DNA of 64,000 nt, taken from a virus (taxonomy: Duplodnaviria; Heunggongvirae; Uroviricota; Caudoviricetes). Positions 7,180 through 63,391 of this stretch are shown here, in pieces; the first letter of the stretch is position 1; each line of letters starts with the position of its first letter. The notes beneath the pieces are model-generated. The model worked only from the letters and a program-made list of their open reading frames with translations. It ran no database searches and was not told where the DNA came from. Location: IMG/VR virus record IMGVR_UViG_2778261638_000005, positions 1 to 64,000 of that record. One strand, written 5' to 3'. The translations under genes were made by a program, and so were the position numbers.

Positions 7180-9689
7180 TGCGGAATATCTCCGGAGAAT
7201 CTCTGACGCTTCTGTGTCAGATTAAGAACAACGGGAGAACCATCATCTTTCAGCAGATAACCAGTACCAAGTTTCACCAGGTACTGACTATCGCCGTAAC
7301 TTTGCAAACCATACTGACCAGGCGGTGTTTTTATCCCGGTGCCGACAACTTGTTCATTCCAAGCCTGATTAACCTGCTTATCGAATTGCTCTGCAGACAT
7401 TCCCCACGGCAAAAGGACATTCCCCATTCCGTTATAGTCATGCACGCCACCTGTAGCTACGTTAACAGCCTGTTTCCAGATATCAGTGTCAATTTCGCCT
7501 GATATCACGCCTTTTTTCGCCATCACACCAGCGTAATAGTCCTTTGCGATCTCGTATGCCATTGATGCCCCCTGAGCATCACCAGCAAATGCATCCTTCA
7601 CCATGTCAGAAAACTCAAGGCGAAGATCAGCATCTTTAGGCATCGGAATACCTTTCGCATCATCAGTACCTTTACGAGCCGCCGCGCCAGCAAGAATTGT
7701 CTGCGCAGCGGTTTCAGGAGACACGGAAACATCCGGATTAAACCAGTTTGTTTCTGCCAAAATACCACCAGGCTTGTCCATCAGTATCCCGGCAACGGCA
7801 GCAGATGGAGCGTTGGCACTGATCTGCTGTAGTGCTGACATATACACCTGCCCACCACCAGTGCTCTGCCTGATGGTATCGAGATATGCTGCCTGTTGGG
7901 AAACTGGAGCATCACGAAAGAAAACACCGATCTGATTGGCCTCGTCTTTGGAAAAGAACGTCAGTGGAGTGCCATATGACTTAGCAAGGTCACTGATCTG
8001 AGCGGCACGCAAGGCAACGCTCTGTCCAAAGTTATCCTTATTGCTCATGTCGATAGGCTTTGCCTGTCCGGAGGCAAGAGAGAACTGCACAGGATCCGAC
8101 TGCCGCTGCTTTATCACCTGATTTGCAGCCGAAACAACGTTGTCATAAAGAGCTGCGCGAGACGCATAACCCTCTCCTGTCTCACCAGTATCCGGGCGTA
8201 ATTGCTCAACATATGCGGTAATGCTGCTTGTCGGCATGTTGCGGAAAGAGCCTATATACTGTCCGGCGATCTGCGTATTTCTGAACTCGGTATATCGCAG
8301 GTTTCCTTCTCTGACGCCATAAGCTGCAATAAAATCATCCTCACCAGGTGGGTTAGGAAATTCAACGCCACGCATATACGCAGCCGTCGCATCGCGAACC
8401 TTGCTGTCAATTATCGTTTTATATTCAGCCTGCTGCTGCCGACGCAGTTGATCCGCCTGTCGCATAAAACTTGCCTGAGCCTCAGGAGATGCCGCATCGA
8501 ATGCTGCATTACCGGTATAGCGTTTGGTGTTGGTTGGAATTGTTGATAAACCAAGTGCTGCACTGACACCAGCAGTTAACTGCTGATCACTGTATGGCTG
8601 GCTACCGTTCTCATGATGGATAATGGCTGCACAAAGCGCCTTCAGGGTATCAGGATTAGATGCATCGAGAGGATCATCAGCAGAAACGCCAAGTTGTTCG
8701 CACACTGCTTTGATATACGACATAGTATCATTTTTATCAGTAGGCGGTGCCCAGCGATTAATTATCTCGCTGACGGTATCAATACCCTGCCTCTGATACG
8801 ACATCAGGTTTCGCCCTAATGCACGAATCCCGTGTTCAGGTGTTTCGAATTTAGCAAATCGACCATCATCACCGGTCTGGCCTACCCACGGATTAGTTTT
8901 GCTGTATTCGAGATTTCCTGGGTTATTGTTGCGTATGCCACGGGCACGCTCGGAAGAGTCACTATCTGCTACAGCACGGCGAGCTCCAGCAGCAGTATCA
9001 CTTAACTCGCCATTATTTTGGATGAATGCGGTCGCATTGTTTGCCGACCACTGGGACAATGCGGCATCAGCAACCTTCTCTTTAAACTCGATTTTCTTGG
9101 CCTGGATTTGCTCGTCGCTCCAGCCATGCGCAATGCCGTAATCCTCAATTTGCTGGAAAGTTTGCTTATTAGCCAATACATATGCGGCATTGTCGCCATA
9201 CAATGCTGCGGCATTTTTACCATTATTCAGCAGCGTCGCCTGAAACTGACCTTCTTCGTAGGCATTAATTTGCCCTATCTCGTGCCGCCCGGCCTGCGTA
9301 GTGAACTGAATGCGCTGCTGCTGCGCCTGCTGCATGAAAGCATTACGAGTCTGTTCATCCGGCAGCGACATAGCCAGTTGCTCGACCTGGGCATCAAACT
9401 GCTGCGTATACTCCTGACCTTTTCCAATAGCATTTTTCCCTTTCAGGTTAAGCAAACCTGTTTCAGGGTTATTCAGCAGATCGCTGCTTATCTGGCTTAA
9501 GCTAAGAGAAGCATCCTGAGCCATAGCAACATTCGCACGCTGTTTTGCCTGCGCAATAATACCTGCATATTGCTCTGCAACATCGCCAAGTACATCACCG
9601 ACATTTGGTGTCTGAAACGATGAGAATCCCTGCGTCGAAATCCCTCTGCTCTGAACCTGACGGCCCGATGTTGTTGGTACAACTGGCAT
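7176..9689 (-). CDS. Internal virion protein with putative peptidoglycan-hydrolase domain (837 aa)
   Basis: Motif GIRNNNPGNLEYSKTNPWVGQ...FAKFETPEHGIRA resembles virion-associated muralytic domains of podovirus structural proteins; recollection, not a search hit. Confidence 0.45.
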   Translation of the reverse strand: MPVVPTTSGRQVQSRGISTQGFSSFQTPNVGDVLGDVAEQYAGIIAQAKQRANVAMAQDASLSLSQISSDLLNNPETGLLNLKGKNAIGKGQEYTQQFDAQVEQLAMSLPDEQTRNAFMQQAQQQRIQFTTQAGRHEIGQINAYEEGQFQATLLNNGKNAAALYGDNAAYVLANKQTFQQIEDYGIAHGWSDEQIQAKKIEFKEKVADAALSQWSANNATAFIQNNGELSDTAAGARRAVADSDSSERARGIRNNNPGNLEYSKTNPWVGQTGDDGRFAKFETPEHGIRALGRNLMSYQRQGIDTVSEIINRWAPPTDKNDTMSYIKAVCEQLGVSADDPLDASNPDTLKALCAAIIHHENGSQPYSDQQLTAGVSAALGLSTIPTNTKRYTGNAAFDAASPEAQASFMRQADQLRRQQQAEYKTIIDSKVRDATAAYMRGVEFPNPPGEDDFIAAYGVREGNLRYTEFRNTQIAGQYIGSFRNMPTSSITAYVEQLRPDTGETGEGYASRAALYDNVVSAANQVIKQRQSDPVQFSLASGQAKPIDMSNKDNFGQSVALRAAQISDLAKSYGTPLTFFSKDEANQIGVFFRDAPVSQQAAYLDTIRQSTGGGQVYMSALQQISANAPSAAVAGILMDKPGGILAETNWFNPDVSVSPETAAQTILAGAAARKGTDDAKGIPMPKDADLRLEFSDMVKDAFAGDAQGASMAYEIAKDYYAGVMAKKGVISGEIDTDIWKQAVNVATGGVHDYNGMGNVLLPWGMSAEQFDKQVNQAWNEQVVGTGIKTPPGQYGLQSYGDSQYLVKLGTGYLLKDDGSPVVLNLTQKRQRFSGDIPQ

Positions 9690-19309: not shown

Positions 19310-19386
19310 GTGGCATTAGCTCAGTCGGACAGAGCAACCGCCTTCTAAGCGGTTGGTCGCAGGTTCGAATCCTGCATGCCACGCCA
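19310..19386 (+). tRNA. tRNA-Arg (anticodon UCU), phage-encoded
   Basis: Cloverleaf by eye: acceptor GTGGCAT/ATGCCAC, D-arm GCTCAGTCGGACAGAGC, anticodon arm ACCGC-CTTCTAA-GCGGT, T-arm GCAGG-TTCGAATC-CTGC, 3' GCCA. Confidence 0.85.
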
Positions 19387-25640: not shown

Positions 25641-25785
25641 TTATTGAGGCGTAAAAAAATGCGCTATCGCGCTGGTATTACTTGATAAATCCTGCCGCCT
25701 TTCCCCGCCTGTATTCCTCCATCAGCCACTGCGCCGGTGTTATTCCCCCCAGGGTGGCGGCGTTAGGCATGCACTAAAGCGCGCA

Positions 25786-25859
25786 AAATCATTTGATACC
25801 GTTTTGAATTTTTTTTGATACCACCCAAAACGGCACAACGAAAAATTATTTGATACTAA
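25786..25859. repeat. Right-end transposase-binding-type repeats (ATTTGATAC motif x3)
   Basis: AAATCATTTGATAC 25786..25799, TTTTGATACC about 25814..25823, AAATTATTTGATACT 25843..25857; inverted relative to the left-end copies. Confidence 0.6.
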
Positions 25860-26593
25860 TCGGGAGTGCTTTTAGGGTATGGCTGAACCCTGAATAGCTT
25901 AGTATTTAGCCGCTTCCTTGCTCGCTTGTTCAGGAACCTGATGTAGCGATACTGATTAAATTTGTGCACCACGGCACGCTCTTTATTAGCCCGTAAATAC
26001 ACGCCTCGTTGTCCACCGCGCTTAATTGCGTTCATCGTTATCTCGTGATACCACTCACCATCCAGCTCGTAGAACGTGCTTTCATGGCTGCCAATAAAAT
26101 CAAAATTCGACGCCTGATACACAACGCCTGCGCGTCCGCAGCGTTCGTCAGCAAAGGACTGAACCCACTCCACTGACGGATACAGTAATCTGATAACTTT
26201 CAGCGCGTAGCTGATGGCCCGTGATTCAGAGTTGCGGGGCATGTCGTCGTGTAGCCACATGCGATTCAACTCCATATAGCCCCGGTTATCCGTTTCAAGC
26301 ACGACACGACGACCTGAGTTGGGGTTAAGGGCATATCCCCACTGGAGAACGCCAACCAGATCGCGTCCGCTGAATACTCCCAGGTGGAGGTAAGAGTTAT
26401 TCACAAAACGGCGGGAATAGTGCTTTGTCTGAATAATTGTGCGGGCCAGCCAGCAGGATATGGTTTCAACGCGCAGCTCCTTTGAACCATAGCCAACAAT
26501 CTGGCCTTCATACTCAATAACGCACGGTTTCGTCAGAATGCGTGATTTTTTCTCTTTTCCCACAATGTTTCTCCGTGGGATGCTCGCAGGCAT
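25856..26593 (-). CDS. mom: Mom DNA-modification protein (start codon uncertain)
   Basis: Directly downstream of and overlapping com, last gene before the element end as in Mu; about 245-aa ORF. Confidence 0.7.
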
Positions 26594-26702
26594 TCAGCAT
26601 TATGATGTGACGTTTGCAACGCGGACACCTGATTTCAATGTGATCAAAGGAATCCGCCTTAAATAACAGTTTGTTGCAGTTTTTACAGCGAATTGATTTC
26701 AT
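26514..26702 (-). CDS. com: Com zinc-finger translational activator of mom (62 aa)
   Basis: [32 protein letters not shown]..., Cys4 zinc finger, 62 aa, overlaps mom start; matches my recollection of Mu Com. Confidence 0.85.
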
Positions 26703-26776
26703 CTCACCTCCTTTGCATCAATTCGCCACTATCTTAAAAAACATCATGGGTTGAGTGTGGTTATTGGGGCATAATC

Positions 26777-26811
26777 GATCTGTATTACCGATCGATTTAA
26801 TTGATTCGATC
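26777..26811. promoter_or_regulatory. Cluster of three GATC (Dam) sites upstream of com-mom (Mu Pmom-type regulatory region)
   Basis: GATC at 26777, 26790 and 26808 within 35 bp; in Mu the equivalent cluster governs methylation-sensitive repression of mom. Confidence 0.65.
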
Positions 26812-27378
26812 GTCGTTTTCTATATGCGCTCGTTTCGCGGGGTGTTTTTTATACAGAGTTGACAGGGCCACATCGTAGATCAATGCAACCTGCTTGCGGG
26901 GGATTCCTTGTGCTAATAAACGCCCGGCCTGCTCCCATTCCGCTTTGGTTAGTTTAGGTGGTCGCCCACCAATACGGCCTTTATTTCTGGCGGCAGCAAG
27001 TCCAGCCATCGTTCGCTCGATGATTAGTTCTCGTTCCATTTCAGCCAGGGCACCCATAACGTGGAAGAAAAAACGCCCCATTGGAGAAGATGTGTCTATG
27101 CTGTCGGTCAGACTGCGAAAATTAATCCCTCGCTCCCGTAGTTCCCCGACGAGAGAAATCAGATGTTTCATGCTTCGCCCGAGGCGATCCAGTTTCCAGA
27201 CAACCAGCGTGTCACCTTTTTGAAGGCGCTTTAAAGCGCGTTTTAATCCCGGTCGGTCTGTCTTTGTCCCGCTTAATTTATCTTCAAATATTTGTTCACA
27301 TCCTGCACAAACAAGAGCGTTTCGTTGCAGGTCTGTATTCTGGTCATTTGTTGATACCCTTACATAGCCAATCAGCAC
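26797..27378 (-). CDS. gin: Serine DNA invertase, Gin/Hin/Pin/Cin family (193 aa)
   Basis: N-terminus MLIGYVRVSTNDQNTDLQ with catalytic Ser, C-terminal HTH; adjacent to invertible fibre segment. Confidence 0.9.
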   Translation of the reverse strand: MLIGYVRVSTNDQNTDLQRNALVCAGCEQIFEDKLSGTKTDRPGLKRALKRLQKGDTLVVWKLDRLGRSMKHLISLVGELRERGINFRSLTDSIDTSSPMGRFFFHVMGALAEMERELIIERTMAGLAAARNKGRIGGRPPKLTKAEWEQAGRLLAQGIPRKQVALIYDVALSTLYKKHPAKRAHIENDDRIN

Positions 27379-27432
27379 TCTGGATCTCCCGTTTAAAAGC
27401 GCAAATCATGCCATGCAGGCCGGAAACAACCA

Positions 27433-27460
27433 TTATCTAAAACCTCGGTTTACAGGAAAC
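27433..27460. repeat. gix-type recombination site (left inverted repeat) TTATCTAAAACCTCGGTTTACAGGAAAC
   Basis: 26 of 28 nt identical to the reverse complement of 30496..30523; fits gix/hix-type crossover sites. Confidence 0.8.
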
Positions 27461-28463
27461 GGTAAACAGGGCTGGTAACGCCGTTCAAAAGACAGGCGAT
27501 ACCTTATCCGGTGGGCTTACTTTTGAAAACGACTCAATCCTTGCCTGGATTCGAAATACTGACTGGGCAAAGATTGGATTTAAAAATGATGCCGACAGCG
27601 ACACAGATTCATACATGTGGTTTGAAACAGGCGACAACGGCAATGAATATTTCAAATGGAGAAGCAAACAAAGCACCACAACAAAAGACCTGATGAATCT
27701 TAAATGGGATGCTTTGTCTGTTCTTGTTAAAGCCCTTTTCAGCAGTGAAGTAAAAATATCGACAGTCAATGCACTGAGGATATTTAATTCATCTTTTGGT
27801 GCCATTTTTCGCCGTTCTGAAGAATGCCTGCATATCATCCCTACACGAGAGAATGAGGGGGAAAATGGTGATATAGGGCCACTACGTCCCTTTACGCTTA
27901 ATCTCAGAACTGGCCGCATAACTATGGGGCATGGTCTGGATGTTACAGGAGATATAACAACTAACGCCTGGGTGTATGCAAACAGGTTTGCTATTAATAG
28001 TGGCTCAACCTCATGGATTGATATGCGAAACCAGAATGTCATTTTTGGTAGAAACGCAGTATCAACAAGTTCTGCGCAGGCTTTGTTAAGACAAGACCAT
28101 GCAGAACGCAAATTTTTTGTCGGTGGACTTGGTAACTACCAGTTTGGTTTTTACATGATTAATAACTCAAGGACAGCCAATGGCACCGATGGTCAGGCGT
28201 ACATGGATAATAACGGTAACTGGCTTTGTGGCTCGCAAGTTATTCCTGGCAACTATGGCAATTTTGATTCCAGATATGTGAGAGATGTTCGCCTGGGTAC
28301 GCGAGTTGTTCAATTGATGGCGCGTGGTGGTCGTTATGAAAAAGCCGGACACGCAATTACCGGATTAAGAATCATTGGTGAAGTAGATGGCGATGATGAA
28401 GCCATCTTCAGGCCAATACAAAAATACATCAATGGCACATGGTATAACGTCGCACAGGTGTAA
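27441..28463 (+). CDS. Alternative tail-fibre C-terminal segment (Sv'-like), promoterless in the present orientation
   Basis: Frame is open back through the gix site (starts NLGLQETVN, the same junction peptide found in the expressed fibre); ends ...INGTWYNVAQV like the expressed fibre. Confidence 0.7.
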   Translation, partial: NLGLQETVNRAGNAVQKTGDTLSGGLTFENDSILAWIRNTDWAKIGFKNDADSDTDSYMWFETGDNGNEYFKWRSKQSTTTKDLMNLKWDALSVLVKALFSSEVKISTVNALRIFNSSFGAIFRRSEECLHIIPTRENEGENGDIGPLRPFTLNLRTGRITMGHGLDVTGDITTNAWVYANRFAINSGSTSWIDMRNQNVIFGRNAVSTSSAQALLRQDHAERKFFVGGLGNYQFGFYMINNSRTANGTDGQAYMDNNGNWLCGSQVIPGNYGNFDSRYVRDVRLGTRVVQLMARGGRYEKAGHAITGLRIIGEVDGDDEAIFRPIQKYINGTWYNVAQV

Positions 28464-28994
28464 ATGATGCAGCATTTAAAAAATATTAAGTCTGGAAATC
28501 CTAAAACGAAAGAACAATATCAGCTAACAAAGAATTTTGATGTTATCTGGTTATGGTCCGAAGACGATAAAAACTGGTATGAGGAAGTGAAAAACTTTCA
28601 GCCAGACACAATAAAGATTGTTTACGATGCAAATAATATTATTGTCGCCATCACTAAAGATGCCTCCACGCTTAACCCTGAAGGTTTTAGCGTCGTTGAG
28701 GTTCCTGATATTACAGCCAACCGCCGCGCTGATGATTCAGGAAAGTGGATGTTTAAGGATGGAGCTGTAGTTAAACGGATTTATACGGCAGACGAACAGC
28801 AACAACAGGCCGAATCACAAAAGGCCGCATTGCTTTCCGAAGCTGAATCAGTCATCCAGCCGCTGGAACGCGCTGTCAGGCTGAATATGGCAACAGACGA
28901 GGAACGCACACGACTGGAAGCATGGGAACGCTACAGTGTTCTGGTCAGCCGTGTGGATACGGCAAATCCTGAATGGCCACAAAAGCCTGAATAA
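28464..28994 (+). CDS. Tail-fibre assembly protein (U'-like), 176 aa
   Basis: Paralog of 29023..29556 (shared motifs [36 protein letters not shown]). Confidence 0.75.
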
Positions 28995-28999
28995 AAATT

Positions 29000-29019
29000 A
29001 AGGCCCGCTATCGGGCCTT
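29000..29019. terminator. Bidirectional hairpin AAGGCCCG-CTAT-CGGGCCTT between convergent tail-fibre assembly genes
   Basis: 8-bp stem; A/T-rich flanks on both sides. Confidence 0.5.
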
Positions 29020-29022
29020 GTC

Positions 29023-29556
29023 TCATTCAGGTTGTTCGGGAAATGTTACTGGCAGGCTGGAGGTGTCTGTAGATTCGACTTTCTGCGCATAGAGCATCCA
29101 CTCAGTTAATTTTTGTTTATTCTCGTCGGAAATGATGCCCAGCCGTAGCTGTGAGTCCCATAGCTGGGTTTTATCCCTGACAAGTTGCAACAGGCTTTGT
29201 TTTTCATTCTCTGCCTGCTGCCTTTGTTCCTCCTCGGTATAAGTTCGCTTTATCACTACGCCATCTTTGAACATCCATTTACCCGAAATATCAGCCCGGC
29301 GATTTGCTGTAATATCAGGAACCTCAACGACGCTTGCGCCTTCTGGATTAATTGCTGAAACATCCTTTTCAATACAAATAATAACGTCGTTGTGGTCATA
29401 GACCATTTTCAACGTATCAGGCTGAAAGTTCTTTTGTTCCTCATACCAGTTTTTCCCATCCTCTGTATAAAGCCATTTGATGTTAAATTGTTTCGTTAGC
29501 TGGTATTGCTCTTTTGTTTTAGGGTTGCCAGCAGTAATGTTTTTTAAGTGCATCAT
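29023..29556 (-). CDS. Tail-fibre assembly protein (U-like), 177 aa
   Basis: Follows the expressed tail-fibre gene; paralog of the + strand copy. Confidence 0.8.
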   Translation of the reverse strand: MMHLKNITAGNPKTKEQYQLTKQFNIKWLYTEDGKNWYEEQKNFQPDTLKMVYDHNDVIICIEKDVSAINPEGASVVEVPDITANRRADISGKWMFKDGVVIKRTYTEEEQRQQAENEKQSLLQLVRDKTQLWDSQLRLGIISDENKQKLTEWMLYAQKVESTDTSSLPVTFPEQPE

Positions 29557-29558
29557 CG

Positions 29559-31019
29559 TTAAATACTCCCCGCGTTATACCACGTCCCATTAATGCAATA
29601 CTGAATTGGCCTTGCCTGAGTTGTATCAATTAATTCATCACGGTTTCCGTTAACTGAACCTGTAACGACATAACCTGACCTGTCAGACCAGCCGGGACCA
29701 TTCCATGTCTGAACAGATGACAGACCGCCCAGGCGAATACCTGTAATAAACCTTGAGTTACATTCTGCCTGCGTATATGCACCAACATCCCCCGCAGAGG
29801 GTTTGCGGGTTGTGGTGTAAAACTCTGACCAGTTAGCTTCAAAGCCATAACCATCACGCGCTGAACGATAAAAGATACCGCCGTTCTTATAATTCACGCG
29901 GAACTGTACAGCAGGGCAACTCCCCGCATTCATATTGAAGTGGAGGATTAATGTCGATGCGCCACTGATATCTGCATCATAAACGCCGCTATTCCAGTTC
30001 CAGCCAACAGCTTTATCATTTGCAACCCTGCTTCCTGTTTGCCCTAAAGCAAATGCAGGCTGCTGGTTTTTCGTGTTGTAGTCTCTTCGCCAGCCAGGAG
30101 CATAAGCATCACCATGATTAATATAAGTGAATTGAGCGTTAGTAATTCCGCCACCGCTGGACGTGCTCGGGGTGGTTACACGGATGGTCATGGCTCCTTT
30201 ATTACCCATAACCTCAATAACGCAACCTGCAAGATGAATAGTTCCACAGCCAGTATCGGTAATAATTTTATTATTGCCGTATGACCATGAACATTTGCAC
30301 ATCCAGTATGGGTGATTGAATGCCCCTTGAGAATCCAGCCATTCAATCAATTGTGCCGTCGTCCAGTTTCCTGCACCTGTGCTAATAGCACTGTGAAAAG
30401 CGCGACATGCACCAATATTTTTTGTGAAAGTATCTTTTCCTGGAATATCTGCGCCGTTCTGGTTTTTCTGTAATGCGCCAGAAGCCTGATTTACCGTTTC
30501 CTGTAAACCGACGTTTTGGATAAACAGCGGCTTATTGGGAATATCTGCTCCGTTCCGGTCTTTTGCCAGACGGGCATTGGCATTATCCATCGCAATTTTC
30601 ACCGCTTTTGCGGTGGCTGCCAGCGTTTCACTGGGGCTGTCAGTGGCACTGGTTAGCTGAACGAGTCCTTTTTTGTTCAGGCTGGCATCATAGATATCCA
30701 GATTTTCACGTGCTGTACGCTGTGCTGATGCCCCGGCAGTTTTAATTTCACTGAGGTTATTTTTTATCAGCAGCGCGTTATTGCTCATAATGGCTTTAAT
30801 GGACAGTGCAAGCTGGTTTAATTTTGTTTTATCCGGTTGAATACCGGCTTCTTCCAGCGTGTTTAATAACTCCGCCTGCACAATATTAAACCAGTCCATG
30901 CCGGGCCATGTGATAACATTATTCCCGTCACCTTCTGAAAACCAGCGAACGATAGCACTACGCTGGGCGGATACGGGCGGCATGACGGTTACGCCGCTGT
31001 CGTTATCAATATAAAACAT
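29559..31019 (-). CDS. Tail fibre protein (S-like), 486 aa; constant N-terminus outside and variable C-terminus inside the invertible segment
   Basis: gix site lies in codons for GLQETVN at 30496..30523; repeated NGADIP(N/G)K motifs. Confidence 0.8.
   Translation of the reverse strand: MFYIDNDSGVTVMPPVSAQRSAIVRWFSEGDGNNVITWPGMDWFNIVQAELLNTLEEAGIQPDKTKLNQLALSIKAIMSNNALLIKNNLSEIKTAGASAQRTARENLDIYDASLNKKGLVQLTSATDSPSETLAATAKAVKIAMDNANARLAKDRNGADIPNKPLFIQNVGLQETVNQASGALQKNQNGADIPGKDTFTKNIGACRAFHSAISTGAGNWTTAQLIEWLDSQGAFNHPYWMCKCSWSYGNNKIITDTGCGTIHLAGCVIEVMGNKGAMTIRVTTPSTSSGGGITNAQFTYINHGDAYAPGWRRDYNTKNQQPAFALGQTGSRVANDKAVGWNWNSGVYDADISGASTLILHFNMNAGSCPAVQFRVNYKNGGIFYRSARDGYGFEANWSEFYTTTRKPSAGDVGAYTQAECNSRFITGIRLGGLSSVQTWNGPGWSDRSGYVVTGSVNGNRDELIDTTQARPIQYCINGTWYNAGSI
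30496..30523. repeat. gix-type recombination site (right inverted repeat) inside the tail-fibre gene
   Basis: GTTTCCTGTAAACCGACGTTTTGGATAA, inverted copy of 27433..27460. Confidence 0.8.
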
Positions 31020-31561
31020 TAGTTATCTCCGTCATGGTAAACAAATTTATAAATCTGATGTGCGGGTTTATATTTCTCCAGTAAACATTCCAGCGCACCC
31101 GATTCATAAACACGTAACGGCGTCAGAACATTATCCAGCACCGTTGCGTTGCGATAATTTTTAATACCGTAAATATTGACCTGCGTAACCCACTGGCCTT
31201 CTGTGGAATCCGTCAGCCTGACGGTAAAACCGTACTGTGCAGCCAGCCATTCATAAAAGCGCCGACTCAGATTGCCGGTCATACGCATTTTATTCGCGGC
31301 AGCCCGCTGGCGTTCGGACAAGGTGCCGTTTTCGCTGGTACAGTCCGGCAACCCCAGAAATGATTCCCACTCCCCCAGATACCAGCGGGATGTGGACGGG
31401 AAACGCTCCCGCAGCATTTGCCGCGCATCATCCGCCGCAGTGGCAATCACGTCGCTGATGGCCTGCGCCAGCGCAGATAATTTGCTGTCGGGGCTTTTAT
31501 TCCAGGCAAGCCCTGACGGCAGTAATTGCAGAAAGGCCGTCTGATAGGGTGTTACAGCCAT
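31019..31561 (-). CDS. Mu gp48-like tail protein (180 aa)
   Basis: Position between baseplate J and fibre; family resemblance to YmfQ/gp48 (recollection). Confidence 0.6.
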   Translation of the reverse strand: MAVTPYQTAFLQLLPSGLAWNKSPDSKLSALAQAISDVIATAADDARQMLRERFPSTSRWYLGEWESFLGLPDCTSENGTLSERQRAAANKMRMTGNLSRRFYEWLAAQYGFTVRLTDSTEGQWVTQVNIYGIKNYRNATVLDNVLTPLRVYESGALECLLEKYKPAHQIYKFVYHDGDN

Positions 31562-59398: not shown

Positions 59399-61486
59399 TC
59401 AGGCCAGCGGATCATCCTGTTCCTGTATGGCTACAAGCTTCTGCAAACCCAGCCTGAAATCGCGTTCATAATCTTCGTCGTAATCCTCCTCATAATCCTG
59501 TTGCTGGATGGTTACCGTATTGCCAACCGGGCGATAAACATTATCCAGCCAGGGTTCAGCCTGTTTGTGCTCCAGTATCTGAATGCCTTCATCCTCAGCA
59601 TCACGAATTTTTTCCTCAGCACGTTTGCGCATTCCTTTAATACGCTGCTGTTGTTTGTGATATTCAGCACTGACAGCAAAGGCTGCGCGTTTATTGCCGT
59701 TCCATATCGCCTCACAGATAAAGCTGCCGTCCTTGCGACGTACCGTAATTCGCTCGGCGTCATGAATGTCATAACTGATAAGTACTTTGCGACCGTGTTC
59801 GTCACGCAACTCCGGCGCGTAGTAAATATTGTTCAGCCACTGAATTTCGCACCGTCTTACCGGGCGTTCCACCATCGGGCGGAACATGTCGCGCAGCTCA
59901 AGATCACTCAGCCACTCAATTTCGGTGCCTTCTTCTGCCAGGCGTTTTTTTCTGAACTCTGCCGGGCTGTAATGCCGCCCGTTCGGTTTCATTGGCAGCT
60001 CAGAATGCGGGCGGTTGTTGTACCATTCCACGCCTTCACGAATAGCCTCAATAAGCTCCGCCCACGATGGTAGCTCGCGCATTGCAGCTTTCTGGCGGTC
60101 GTTCAGAGGCTTGTCCTGTTGCATGGCGTTAAACGCTGAACGCAGATCACGGTTAAGTACACGCAACGATTCCCGGTCAGCACCCTTGCCAAAATAGGTG
60201 CGATACCTCCTGGCTATACGCATCGGCAGTGTCCGGTTCAGGCGTTCAATAATGCCGCGCCCCTGTGGATTACCGGCAATACCGGTAGGGTGTTTAATCC
60301 CCAGGCGGGGCAGAATACCCACGATCTCTTTGTCCAGTATGTCAGCCGTTTCACCAGAACCATTATCCGAGTAATACAGAAACGGTTTTCCGTGGTTGCG
60401 AATGCCGTGCTGTATCGCACCGGCAACGGCGAACACGTTCTCGGCAAGGTCAAGACTCCAGCCAACAACAAACCGGGTTCCACCGTCGATCACAAATGTA
60501 ACTTCCGGTGAGAATGGACGCCCGTGGATCGGATGTGCACATTTCAGCTTCATACCGTGACCGTCACCAATCCAGACATAATTCACCGGCATAGCTGTCC
60601 AGTCGCGGCGGGTGAATCCTTCAAGCTGACGGTATTCACTGCCGGTAACGCGCCCTTTTTGTTTCACCACTTCCGGCAGTTTTTTCATGGCATACCGGAC
60701 AACATCATAGGAAGGCATCACCTCCAGCATGTATGGTTCGTCCGCATGGCGACGCTGCCAATCAGCGACAAAATCCTCATAGGCTTCAGACATAGGCCTG
60801 CCGTTAGCCTGACGATACTGCGCCAGAAATTCAGGCAGCCAGCTAATTTCTTCCGGTTTTATTTCGTCGCGCTTTCCTGGTGCCAGTAACAGCAGTCGTT
60901 CTGCGGCATTCTGTGCTTTGTTAAACGCAGCTATCCAACGTTTGAGCGTAATTGCGCTCAGAGTTCGCTCTTTTCCTTTACGGGCATTAGCAGTAATGAC
61001 CAAAGATTCCAGGCGTTCTTCCAGGTTACCCTGCGCTAACCGCGACACAATAAAACGTATAGCGCTGGCACAACTGAATCCCGGCTCCTGGCTAATTCGT
61101 AGAACTTCACAGACAAGAGCAATGCGCGCTTCTGCAACTTTACGTTGATTTTCCGTAAGCGCATTCAGACGCTCTTCTACCAATTGTGGCGAACCGCGAT
61201 ATGCCTCAACAGGCTGTACAACATTTTGTTTGCGTTCACGCTTTACAGGAGGCTGGGTAGTTATCTCCCGCGGGGCGCTTGCCATCAGTTGAGCTACATG
61301 TCGCTCACGTAACGCCCGTTGTGTAACCGGAGGGAGGCAGTCGATGCTGTATTCAATGGTTTTTGAACCCGCACGTTTGCGCCTGAAATGCTCAGATGAG
61401 GCCAGTTTCCTTATGGAATACCGCACCCCTTGCGCAGTTCCCGGCATACCTGGTAACCCTACAAGCTCATTAACTGATACAAACAT
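59399..61486 (-). CDS. DDE transposase A (MuA-like), 695 aa
   Basis: Size, position after ner, N-terminal end-binding-type domain, acidic C-terminus. Confidence 0.85.
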   Translation of the reverse strand: MFVSVNELVGLPGMPGTAQGVRYSIRKLASSEHFRRKRAGSKTIEYSIDCLPPVTQRALRERHVAQLMASAPREITTQPPVKRERKQNVVQPVEAYRGSPQLVEERLNALTENQRKVAEARIALVCEVLRISQEPGFSCASAIRFIVSRLAQGNLEERLESLVITANARKGKERTLSAITLKRWIAAFNKAQNAAERLLLLAPGKRDEIKPEEISWLPEFLAQYRQANGRPMSEAYEDFVADWQRRHADEPYMLEVMPSYDVVRYAMKKLPEVVKQKGRVTGSEYRQLEGFTRRDWTAMPVNYVWIGDGHGMKLKCAHPIHGRPFSPEVTFVIDGGTRFVVGWSLDLAENVFAVAGAIQHGIRNHGKPFLYYSDNGSGETADILDKEIVGILPRLGIKHPTGIAGNPQGRGIIERLNRTLPMRIARRYRTYFGKGADRESLRVLNRDLRSAFNAMQQDKPLNDRQKAAMRELPSWAELIEAIREGVEWYNNRPHSELPMKPNGRHYSPAEFRKKRLAEEGTEIEWLSDLELRDMFRPMVERPVRRCEIQWLNNIYYAPELRDEHGRKVLISYDIHDAERITVRRKDGSFICEAIWNGNKRAAFAVSAEYHKQQQRIKGMRKRAEEKIRDAEDEGIQILEHKQAEPWLDNVYRPVGNTVTIQQQDYEEDYDEDYERDFRLGLQKLVAIQEQDDPLA

Positions 61487-62450: not shown

Positions 62451-62507
62451 TTCCAATAGCCCGCGGCTGGTTTTTTAACCTGTTTAAAACGTTAAAATCG
62501 CAGAAAT

Positions 62508-62672
62508 CAGTAGTATCAAATATTTTTTCGTTTTTAGCTTTCTTTGCGACAGTAGTATCAAATCACATGTTGTGCGCATAACACTGTTTTACGTCATAAC
62601 TGTTTGTTTTATCCCATCAAATCCCGTTTGATCCACTTTCCTCCCGGATTTTTCAGCAGTATCAAATGATTT
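62508..62672. repeat. Left-end transposase-binding-type repeats (CAGTAGTATCAAAT x3)
   Basis: Copies at 62508..62521, 62550..62563 and 62654..62667 (third is CAGCAGTATCAAAT); reverse complement of the motif at the right end. Confidence 0.6.
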
Positions 62673-63391
62673 ACCTCTCTATAGCACCCGAAACTTCGCC
62701 CTGGTGGATGGTAAACGTCTCTCCCTGTTTCCGGAGGCGTACTCATGGGTTCTGGCTTTGCCTGTATGCTGATCACCGGATCGGGTATCTGCTGTCCGGA
62801 AGCCACCTTTTTCGCCCAATCATCGAGCAGCCTGCGCGCGTGTTTCTCAACCTCAATCTCGCTAAGCTGGCGCTGATACATTGCACGGCGGGTATCACAT
62901 ACGACCCAGTACATAACCGGATGCCGCCACGGGAATCTTTCGGGACCACCAGGATATAAACTTTTTTCCTTGCTGTACCGGTGAAACTCCGTCATCACAT
63001 CGTCAATGGTGACGCCAAGAACCATCTTGCTGTCTTTGCACCACTTGATGAATTGCCCTGGCGACGGCCAGAACGGAGAATCACTGGCGCGGGCGTGGCG
63101 CATACCAGCAGAAACCTGTTCACGGGTTCGGATCCCCCCTTCAGCAAACGCAGCAATCCACTGCTGTTTTGCAGCAACTTCCTGCTCTGGCGTCTTCAGG
63201 TTGGTTACCACTGCCGCCGGAAACAGTTGTTTCAACTGTTTGAAAAGGGCATCAACAAGCCTCTCTGCTGACATGTTCACTACGTTGTCATTGTTGGTGT
63301 ACTGATGCTCATAACCTGACATGCGAGAAAGGGCCTCTCCGTCACGGTTTTGTATTGCGGTAAAAACGTTGTTCACAAGAAATCCTCCCAT
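62609..63391 (-). CDS. Lambda P-like replication protein (helicase loader); 3'-terminal about 25 codons derive from the Mu-like end
   Basis: VSAGMRHARASDSPFWPSPGQFIKWCKD aligns with lambda P VNAGMRVARRQNRPFLPSPGQFVAWCRE (recollection); reading frame runs across the inferred insertion junction. Confidence 0.7.
   Translation of the reverse strand: MGGFLVNNVFTAIQNRDGEALSRMSGYEHQYTNNDNVVNMSAERLVDALFKQLKQLFPAAVVTNLKTPEQEVAAKQQWIAAFAEGGIRTREQVSAGMRHARASDSPFWPSPGQFIKWCKDSKMVLGVTIDDVMTEFHRYSKEKSLYPGGPERFPWRHPVMYWVVCDTRRAMYQRQLSEIEVEKHARRLLDDWAKKVASGQQIPDPVISIQAKPEPMSTPPETGRDVYHPPGRSFGCYREVNHLILLKNPGGKWIKRDLMG

Follow-up and report, generated by a model that had tools for sequence, protein, structure and literature searches.

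Can a phage tail-fibre switch still turn when one of its two crossover sites is altered right beside the point of strand exchange? The question is raised by a locus in a Mu-like prophage within IMG/VR virus record IMGVR_UViG_2778261638_000005 (Caudoviricetes), of which positions 1 to 64,000 were analysed; this whole stretch is called the window, and all coordinates refer to it. Between a gene for the serine DNA invertase Gin and the constant part of a tail-fibre gene, the locus holds two opposed alternative fibre tips, each with its own assembly chaperone, enclosed by two inverted gix sites. We read it, with close to full confidence, as an active Gin/gix G-segment host-range switch of a Mu-family transposable prophage. 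What carries this reading is the occurrence in public sequences of the same segment, with the same variant sites, in both orientations. The parts of the switch are, in map order:

26797..27378, minus strand: gin, which begins with GTG and encodes a 193-aa serine DNA invertase (Pfam Resolvase 2e-50 and HTH_7 2e-17)
27433..27458: gin-proximal gix site, TTATCTAAAACC TC GGTTTACAGGAA, one mismatch to Mu gix (T at 27438)
27445..30511: invertible segment, 3,067 bp from dinucleotide to dinucleotide, whose in-silico inversion matches public loci
27447..28463, plus strand: Sv of S type, the silent alternative tip, without its own start codon at the site (Pfam Gp34_trimer)
28464..28994, plus strand: U-type chaperone, 176 aa, currently silent (Pfam Caudo_TAP 8e-38)
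29023..29556, minus strand: U'-type tail-fibre assembly chaperone, 177 aa, currently expressed (Pfam Caudo_TAP 2e-36)
29559..30509, minus strand: Sv of S' type, the tip currently fused to Sc, which completes the 486-aa fibre
30498..30523: Sc-proximal gix site, reverse complement TTATCCAAAACG TC GGTTTACAGGAA, one mismatch to Mu gix
30512..31019, minus strand: Sc, the constant N-terminal part of fibre gene S, outside the segment

On the plus strand, positions 27433-27460 read TTATCTAAAACCTCGGTTTACAGGAAAC, and the reverse complement of 30496-30523 reads TTATCCAAAACGTCGGTTTACAGGAAAC. The two agree at 26 of 28 positions, just as an earlier inspection of the letters alone (the first-pass annotation, whose coordinates all proved accurate) had claimed in describing them as inverted repeats. 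Its reading of them as fitting gix/hix-type crossover sites also holds: a search of the 64-kb window with the 26-bp gix core of Mu, allowing up to 3 mismatches, gave exactly two matches with 1 mismatch each, and the search gave 0 matches in 100 dinucleotide-preserving shuffles of the window. At that threshold the window held no further gix-like sites of the sort seen in the multi-site Min system. In a repeat search the pair extended to an inverted repeat of 58 nt with 78% complementarity. Relative to Mu gix, the gin-proximal site has a C-to-T change at position 6, and the Sc-proximal site has a C-to-G change that places a G directly against the central dinucleotide (C at 30512 on the plus strand). 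These two mismatches between the sites fall in the outer half-sites only; the inner half-sites and the central dinucleotide are identical, the latter being TC at 27445-27446 and GA at 30510-30511, or TC in both sites when read from outer to inner. The window thus holds two 26-bp inverted, imperfectly palindromic sites with the same central dinucleotide, as in the Din family of invertases. The gin-proximal variant recurs in SfMu, WS1933D and RM8082, and the Sc-proximal variant in SfMu and WS1933D.

Both sites sit within fibre coding sequence. The Sc-proximal site lies in the fibre open reading frame (ORF) at 29559-31019 (minus strand, 486 aa, starting at 31019 and containing a Phage_fiber_2 repeat), where it covers residues G171-N177 (GLQETVN). 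At the gin-proximal site, a TAA at 27438-27440 is followed by an uninterrupted frame, 27441-28463, that begins NLGLQETVN. ORF reading therefore bears out two further statements of the first-pass annotation, that one site falls inside the expressed fibre gene at the codons for GLQETVN and that the other opens into 27441..28463 with the same peptide. Both fusion frames are open, giving 486 aa as observed and 508 aa after in-silico inversion. The arrangement, in which the segment leaves out a constant 5' part and encloses two opposed 3' tips, each with its own chaperone, is that of the Mu and P1 systems. A 26-nt direct repeat, 88% identical (30442-30467 and 30538-30563), flanks the Sc-proximal gix; it encodes NGADIPNK and NGADIPGK, so that the motif brackets the junction in the expressed fibre.

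As to its present state, the segment aligns to the Mu reference on the strand opposite to its flanks, and the tip of NRAG type, which stands beside Sc in Mu G(+), adjoins gin in the window. The window is for these reasons in the G(-)-type state. The earlier description of the current product as the 486-aa fibre with the 177-aa assembly protein is correct, with the addition that in Mu nomenclature this is G(-), not G(+).

An arrangement of this kind might be a relic, and the doubt has been raised before. The authors of the SfMu paper, who could not tell whether the SfMu segment inverts, noted that a 1-bp change beside the crossover, present in one repeat only, might reduce or abolish inversion, and reported the same host range for lysates obtained by induction and by infection (PMC4406740). 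The window carries the identical change and stands in the same orientation as SfMu, which would fit a prophage locked in a G(-)-type state by its gix variant. Public sequences argue against such a frozen switch. Inversion was modelled by taking the reverse complement of 27445-30511, which yields an open fibre of 508 aa; exactly this protein is present, residue for residue, in a public protein collection, as is the 486-aa form. At the DNA level, no mismatch in 5,706 bp separates the in-silico inverted window from loci L015, L016 and L033, and none separates the observed form from loci L017, L019, L020, L021 and L024, so that otherwise identical elements with both variant half-sites exist in both orientations. 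Counted by insertion site, of which near-identical copies take up at least 13, the two states are roughly balanced (7 inverted, 6 as in the window), with one site found in both. At that chromosomal site, L014 (GCA_017657735.1) and L022 (GCA_034990305.1) are identical over 13,461 bp (0 mismatches) after inverting between the crossover dinucleotides. WS1933D adds a further case, carrying the same variant gix pair in the opposite orientation. Abolition of inversion by the variant site is excluded by these data, since elements with exactly this pair of sites occur both ways round, one lineage showing both; we accordingly consider a locked switch very improbable. The first-pass annotation had proposed looking for both orientations; in public assemblies both were found. 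Its proposal that inversion would exchange the fibre C-terminus together with the cognate assembly protein is likewise supported, by the two tip-plus-chaperone cassettes and by the public existence of the inverted 508-aa form.

The same loci show where strands are exchanged. In 14 of 14 loci the outer half-sites are fixed to their flanks (TTATCT...AAAACC beside gin, AAAACG beside Sc). Because these outer variants stay with the flanks while the inner sequence swaps, exchange can be placed within the 22-bp identical core at 27445-27466, which on its outer side begins with the known cleavage dinucleotide. This position bears on a second alternative, that the inversions are real and are made by host RecA through homologous recombination between the inverted repeats rather than by Gin. 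Sequence alone does not name the enzyme that performed an exchange, and the segment does hold a longer, diverged inverted homology, U vs. U' (351 nt at 70%), on which RecA might act. Yet no exchange was seen within that longer homology, and every observed exchange falls inside the 22 bp, a length at or below the minimum for efficient RecA-dependent recombination in E. coli. The coincidence of the outer edge with the Gin cleavage dinucleotide and the adjoining intact Gin, 99.5% identical to a biochemically characterised enzyme, also point away from RecA. The RecA route is unlikely because identity at the exchange point amounts to only 22 bp, and we rank it marginally below the locked switch.

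The notion that the two public orientations are assembly artefacts at an inverted repeat, to which most loci being short-read draft assemblies and the end of one contig about 105 nt past the gin-side crossover might lend colour, deserves next to no credence, because exact inverted identity runs to 22 bp at most (typical assemblers finish with longer k-mers, and a 3-kb flip needs reads that support both junctions) and closed E. coli W genomes show both states, and the breakpoints are always exact. The E. coli W assemblies in question, NC_017635 and NC_017664, contain a related prophage whose gix sites are canonical; over 7,001 bp their sole difference is that 3,084 bp are exactly inverted, with both ends of the inversion inside the gix repeats. 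Among the complete E. coli genomes searched the best junction matches were 95.9% for the observed form and 98.4% for the inverted form. The contig mentioned (L036, GCA_034990455.1) ends at locus position 8180; its break may be a sign of a mixed-orientation population in the sample.

Record names give a view of the hosts. Those with the 508-aa fibre (loci L011-L016 and L028-L036) name E. coli and also two serovars of Salmonella enterica, Lille and Montevideo, and those listed for the 486-aa fibre name E. coli only. Judged from these names, an essentially identical phage seems to circulate in two genera.

Returning to the active Gin/gix switch, its recombinase is intact. Gin is identical to Mu Gin at 192 of 193 residues (99.5%), the sole difference being R39K, and it retains the catalytic Ser9 in the motif VRVSTNDQ (for the role of S9 in Gin catalysis, see PMC3575834); the first-pass annotation had seen no mutation inactivating gin, and this stands. 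A small serine recombinase whose resolvase domain bears the nucleophilic serine and is followed by a C-terminal helix-turn-helix is what the Din family comprises. Two further elements of the switch belong to the control of recombination and of transcription:

27289..27360, minus strand: presumed Fis-dependent recombinational enhancer, gin nt 19-90, by homology to Cin enhancers
29000..29019: GC-rich hairpin AAGGCCCGATAGCGGGCCTT followed by a T-run, between the convergent chaperone genes

Over its first 110 nt gin does not differ from that of Mu, and this stretch spans the region homologous to the Cin enhancers annotated in sequence records (cin nt 19-90 in P1 and nt 19-86 in P7). The hairpin is likely a shared terminator of the fibre operon for either orientation. 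Every defining feature of the Din family and of the Mu G segment that a sequence can reveal is present here, except that the enhancer is only presumed, from its identity with Mu.

The two cassettes are each made of well-known parts. The expressed tip is 88.5% identical to Mu Sv' and 95.6% identical to the C-terminal 315 aa of P1 Sv', and the whole 486-aa fibre is 92.2% identical to SfMu ORF49. The 177-aa chaperone that goes with it has 98.9% identity with Mu U' and 95.5% with P1 U'. On the silent side, identities of the tip are 97.4% (P7, where the counterpart is labelled Sv'), 74.0% (P1 Sv) and 67.7% (Mu S), and those of the 176-aa chaperone are 100% (P7, where the counterpart is labelled U'), 98.3% (P1 U) and 94.9% (Mu U). 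Between themselves, the two tips share 38% identity over their last 71 aligned positions.

From these parts a mechanism can be proposed along the lines summarised for Mu (PMC3575834, PMC4406740). Gin dimers would bind the two inverted 26-bp gix sites, and the Fis-bound enhancer in the 5' end of gin would activate the synaptic tetramer. Gin would then cut both sites at the central 2-bp TC/GA with a 2-bp stagger, and 180-degree subunit rotation and religation would flip the 3,067-bp segment; the dependence on Fis and supercoiling, the 2-bp staggered cut and the subunit rotation are carried over from the biochemistry of Mu, P1 and Hin and presumably apply here. The fibre gene, which would be transcribed late, begins outside the segment (Sc, from 31019 to 30512) and would be read through the Sc-proximal gix, so that orientation would decide which of two unrelated C-terminal tips completes the fibre, with the matching chaperone gene next. 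The G(-)-type state would accordingly make the 486-aa fibre of S' class with the 177-aa U', and the flipped state a 508-aa fibre of S class with the 176-aa U.

In Mu G(+) and P1 C(+), the S-type tip binds the rough core of lipopolysaccharide (LPS); the receptor of the silent tip is uncertain, because it is only 68-74% identical to the S-type tips of Mu and P1. Relatives of the expressed tip use LPS that contains O-antigen: P1(S') requires O-antigen (bioRxiv 10.1101/2022.07.24.501295), LPS-receptor experiments have been reported for SfMu (PMC4406740), and SfMu plaques have been reported on serotypes 3b and Y of S. flexneri. The two tips of the present element would thus be expected to give different host ranges, by analogy with Mu, whose G(+) and G(-) forms differ in host range (PMC4406740).

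Several points weigh against an active switch in this prophage, or temper it. The enhancer is presumed from identity to Mu and from homology to the annotated Cin enhancers. A crude scan for sigma-70 promoters around gin and gix returned 5 sites against 8.9 expected, with no consensus gin promoter among them. The C-to-G change beside the crossover could lower the rate of inversion, as the SfMu authors suggested (PMC4406740). Finally, we infer switching in this particular lysogen from its sister lysogens: among the 9 places returned for the insertion site of the window (a phiV10-like P gene) none had the inverted form, and L019, in the as-window form, was the only one to carry the insertion flank of the window. 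It is because this site appears in the as-window form only that the same-site evidence was drawn from the L014/L022 lineage.

Comparison with known systems places the locus firmly. With Mu (AF083977: S, U, U', S' and gin) it shares the order Sc / gix / Sv-U / U'-Sv' / gix / gin-com-mom. It differs in that the Mu reference is G(+) and the window G(-), in that each gix core of the window is 1 nt off that of Mu and its two sites are not identical to each other, in the S-type tip, which is only 67.7% identical, and in the prophage ends and the transposase. SfMu (KP010268; G region ORF49-52 plus Gin) is the best overall DNA match, at 92.4% over 95% of 25700-31100 and in the same orientation; it shares both gix variants, including the change beside the crossover, and its Gin is 99.0% and its fibre 92.2% identical. 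The silent S-type tip of SfMu, however, is only 76% identical, and SfMu has Mu-type ends, which the element in the window does not. The closest match to the interior of the segment is the C segment of P7, whose central 3 kb has 97.2% DNA identity to window positions 27493-30476. The Cin/cix systems of P1 and P7 follow the same logic (two crossover sites served by an invertase whose gene contains the enhancer), but Cin (in P7) is only 77% identical to the Gin of the window, the cix centre is TT where that of the gix sites is TC, and the P1 and P7 segments, at about 4.2 kb, have longer variable parts and a different Sc. Judged by these identities, the cassettes are pieced together from known modules of P1, P7 and Mu.

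Hin/hix, which governs flagellar phase variation in Salmonella, Pin of e14 and Min of p15B are further serine invertases of the Din family, whose members use 26-bp sites and a Fis enhancer (for Hin and Fis, see PMC3575834). Among them Min has several crossover sites, unlike the window with its two, and Hin flips a promoter, whereas the system described here flips gene ends. Two other segments in the set of public loci look less regular. In L009 (E. coli MB06231) S'-type tip starts (NQAS) lie beside both gix sites, and in L006 (E. coli OZ040490) a truncated tip follows a gin-side site whose inner half, GGTTTACGAGAA, resembles that of cix; together they suggest cassette replacement and decay at these sites.

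Three neighbouring genes flank the segment:

25856-26593, minus strand: mom, left of the segment (Pfam Mom)
26514-26702, minus strand: com, left of the segment (Pfam Zn_ribbon_Com)
31019-31561: Mu gp48-type baseplate gene, upstream of the fibre gene (Pfam Phage_Mu_Gp48)

The Mu-like prophage as a whole spans 25775-62683 (~36.9 kb), and its place in the Mu family is marked by Pfam matches to Mu-transpos_C, HTH_Tnp_Mu_1, Phage-MuB_C, Phage_Mu_Gp48, Zn_ribbon_Com and Mom. It is inserted in the lambda-P-type replication gene of a second prophage, like phiV10 and epsilon15 (Uetakevirus), which fills 1-25774 and the flank 62684-63391 and shares ~97% identity with PAS61, phiV10 and two O157 typing phages, 9 and 10. 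The replication gene of this outer phage is disrupted, because the Mu-like prophage sits inside P. A tRNA-Arg (anticodon TCT) lies at 19310-19386 on the plus strand, inside the outer prophage, and Rfam and ARAGORN searches over the whole window gave no other match.

The ends of the inner element are not those of Mu. Canonical Mu end sequences were absent from the window at up to 4 mismatches, and the ends were located by comparison with RM8082, WS1933D and PAS61. The termini are TA...TA vs. TG...CA in Mu, and both ends (25775-25860 and 62500-62683) carry repeated TTTGATAC / GTATCAAA motifs, without similarity to Mu or SfMu ends, which are presumed to be transposase-binding sites. The transposase ORF (59399-61486, minus strand, 695 aa) has partial Pfam Mu-transposase matches only. 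Window position 25775 is also precisely where the record of Yersinia phage vB_YpM_5 starts, from which it follows that this phage group shares the end. Target sites seem to be duplicated over 4 bp, where Mu duplicates 5 bp, as seen in three of three insertions: GCAC in the window (25771-25774 and 62684-62687), CGAA in RM8082 (L007/L025) and AGCC in WS1933D (L008/L026), with the uninterrupted P gene of PAS61 confirming the 4-bp overlap of the flanks.

Two ideas go further, and we offer them as speculation that is much more likely wrong than right. One is that the asymmetric gix pair, conserved in the window lineage, SfMu and WS1933D, is not neutral and might tune the switch rate or bias orientation, giving a G(+):G(-) ratio unlike that of Mu. 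The other, separate from it, is that the P7-like interior set in a Mu-type Sc/gin frame might have arisen because Mu-like and P1-like phages swap host-range cassettes whole, by way of shared invertase sites.

The switch itself brings no new biology: it is real and active, an orthologue of the classical Mu G segment and already known as such, and it serves the classic variation of phage host range by site-specific inversion. It does alter how the silent half of such loci should be read. The seemingly partial fibre ORF at 27441-28463 is a functional alternative cassette, comparable to an exon, and not a pseudogene. In three sister prophages (L004, L006 and L008), RefSeq annotation (PGAP) calls the silent tip beside gin an incomplete or pseudogene 'phage tail protein'; labels of this kind on silent tips are a systematic mis-annotation of the invertible cassette. 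The small new result is that the gix variant suspected by the SfMu authors of blocking inversion is compatible with natural inversion. Because near-identical copies exist at at least 13 insertion sites and both orientations occur, the prophage is probably fully active.

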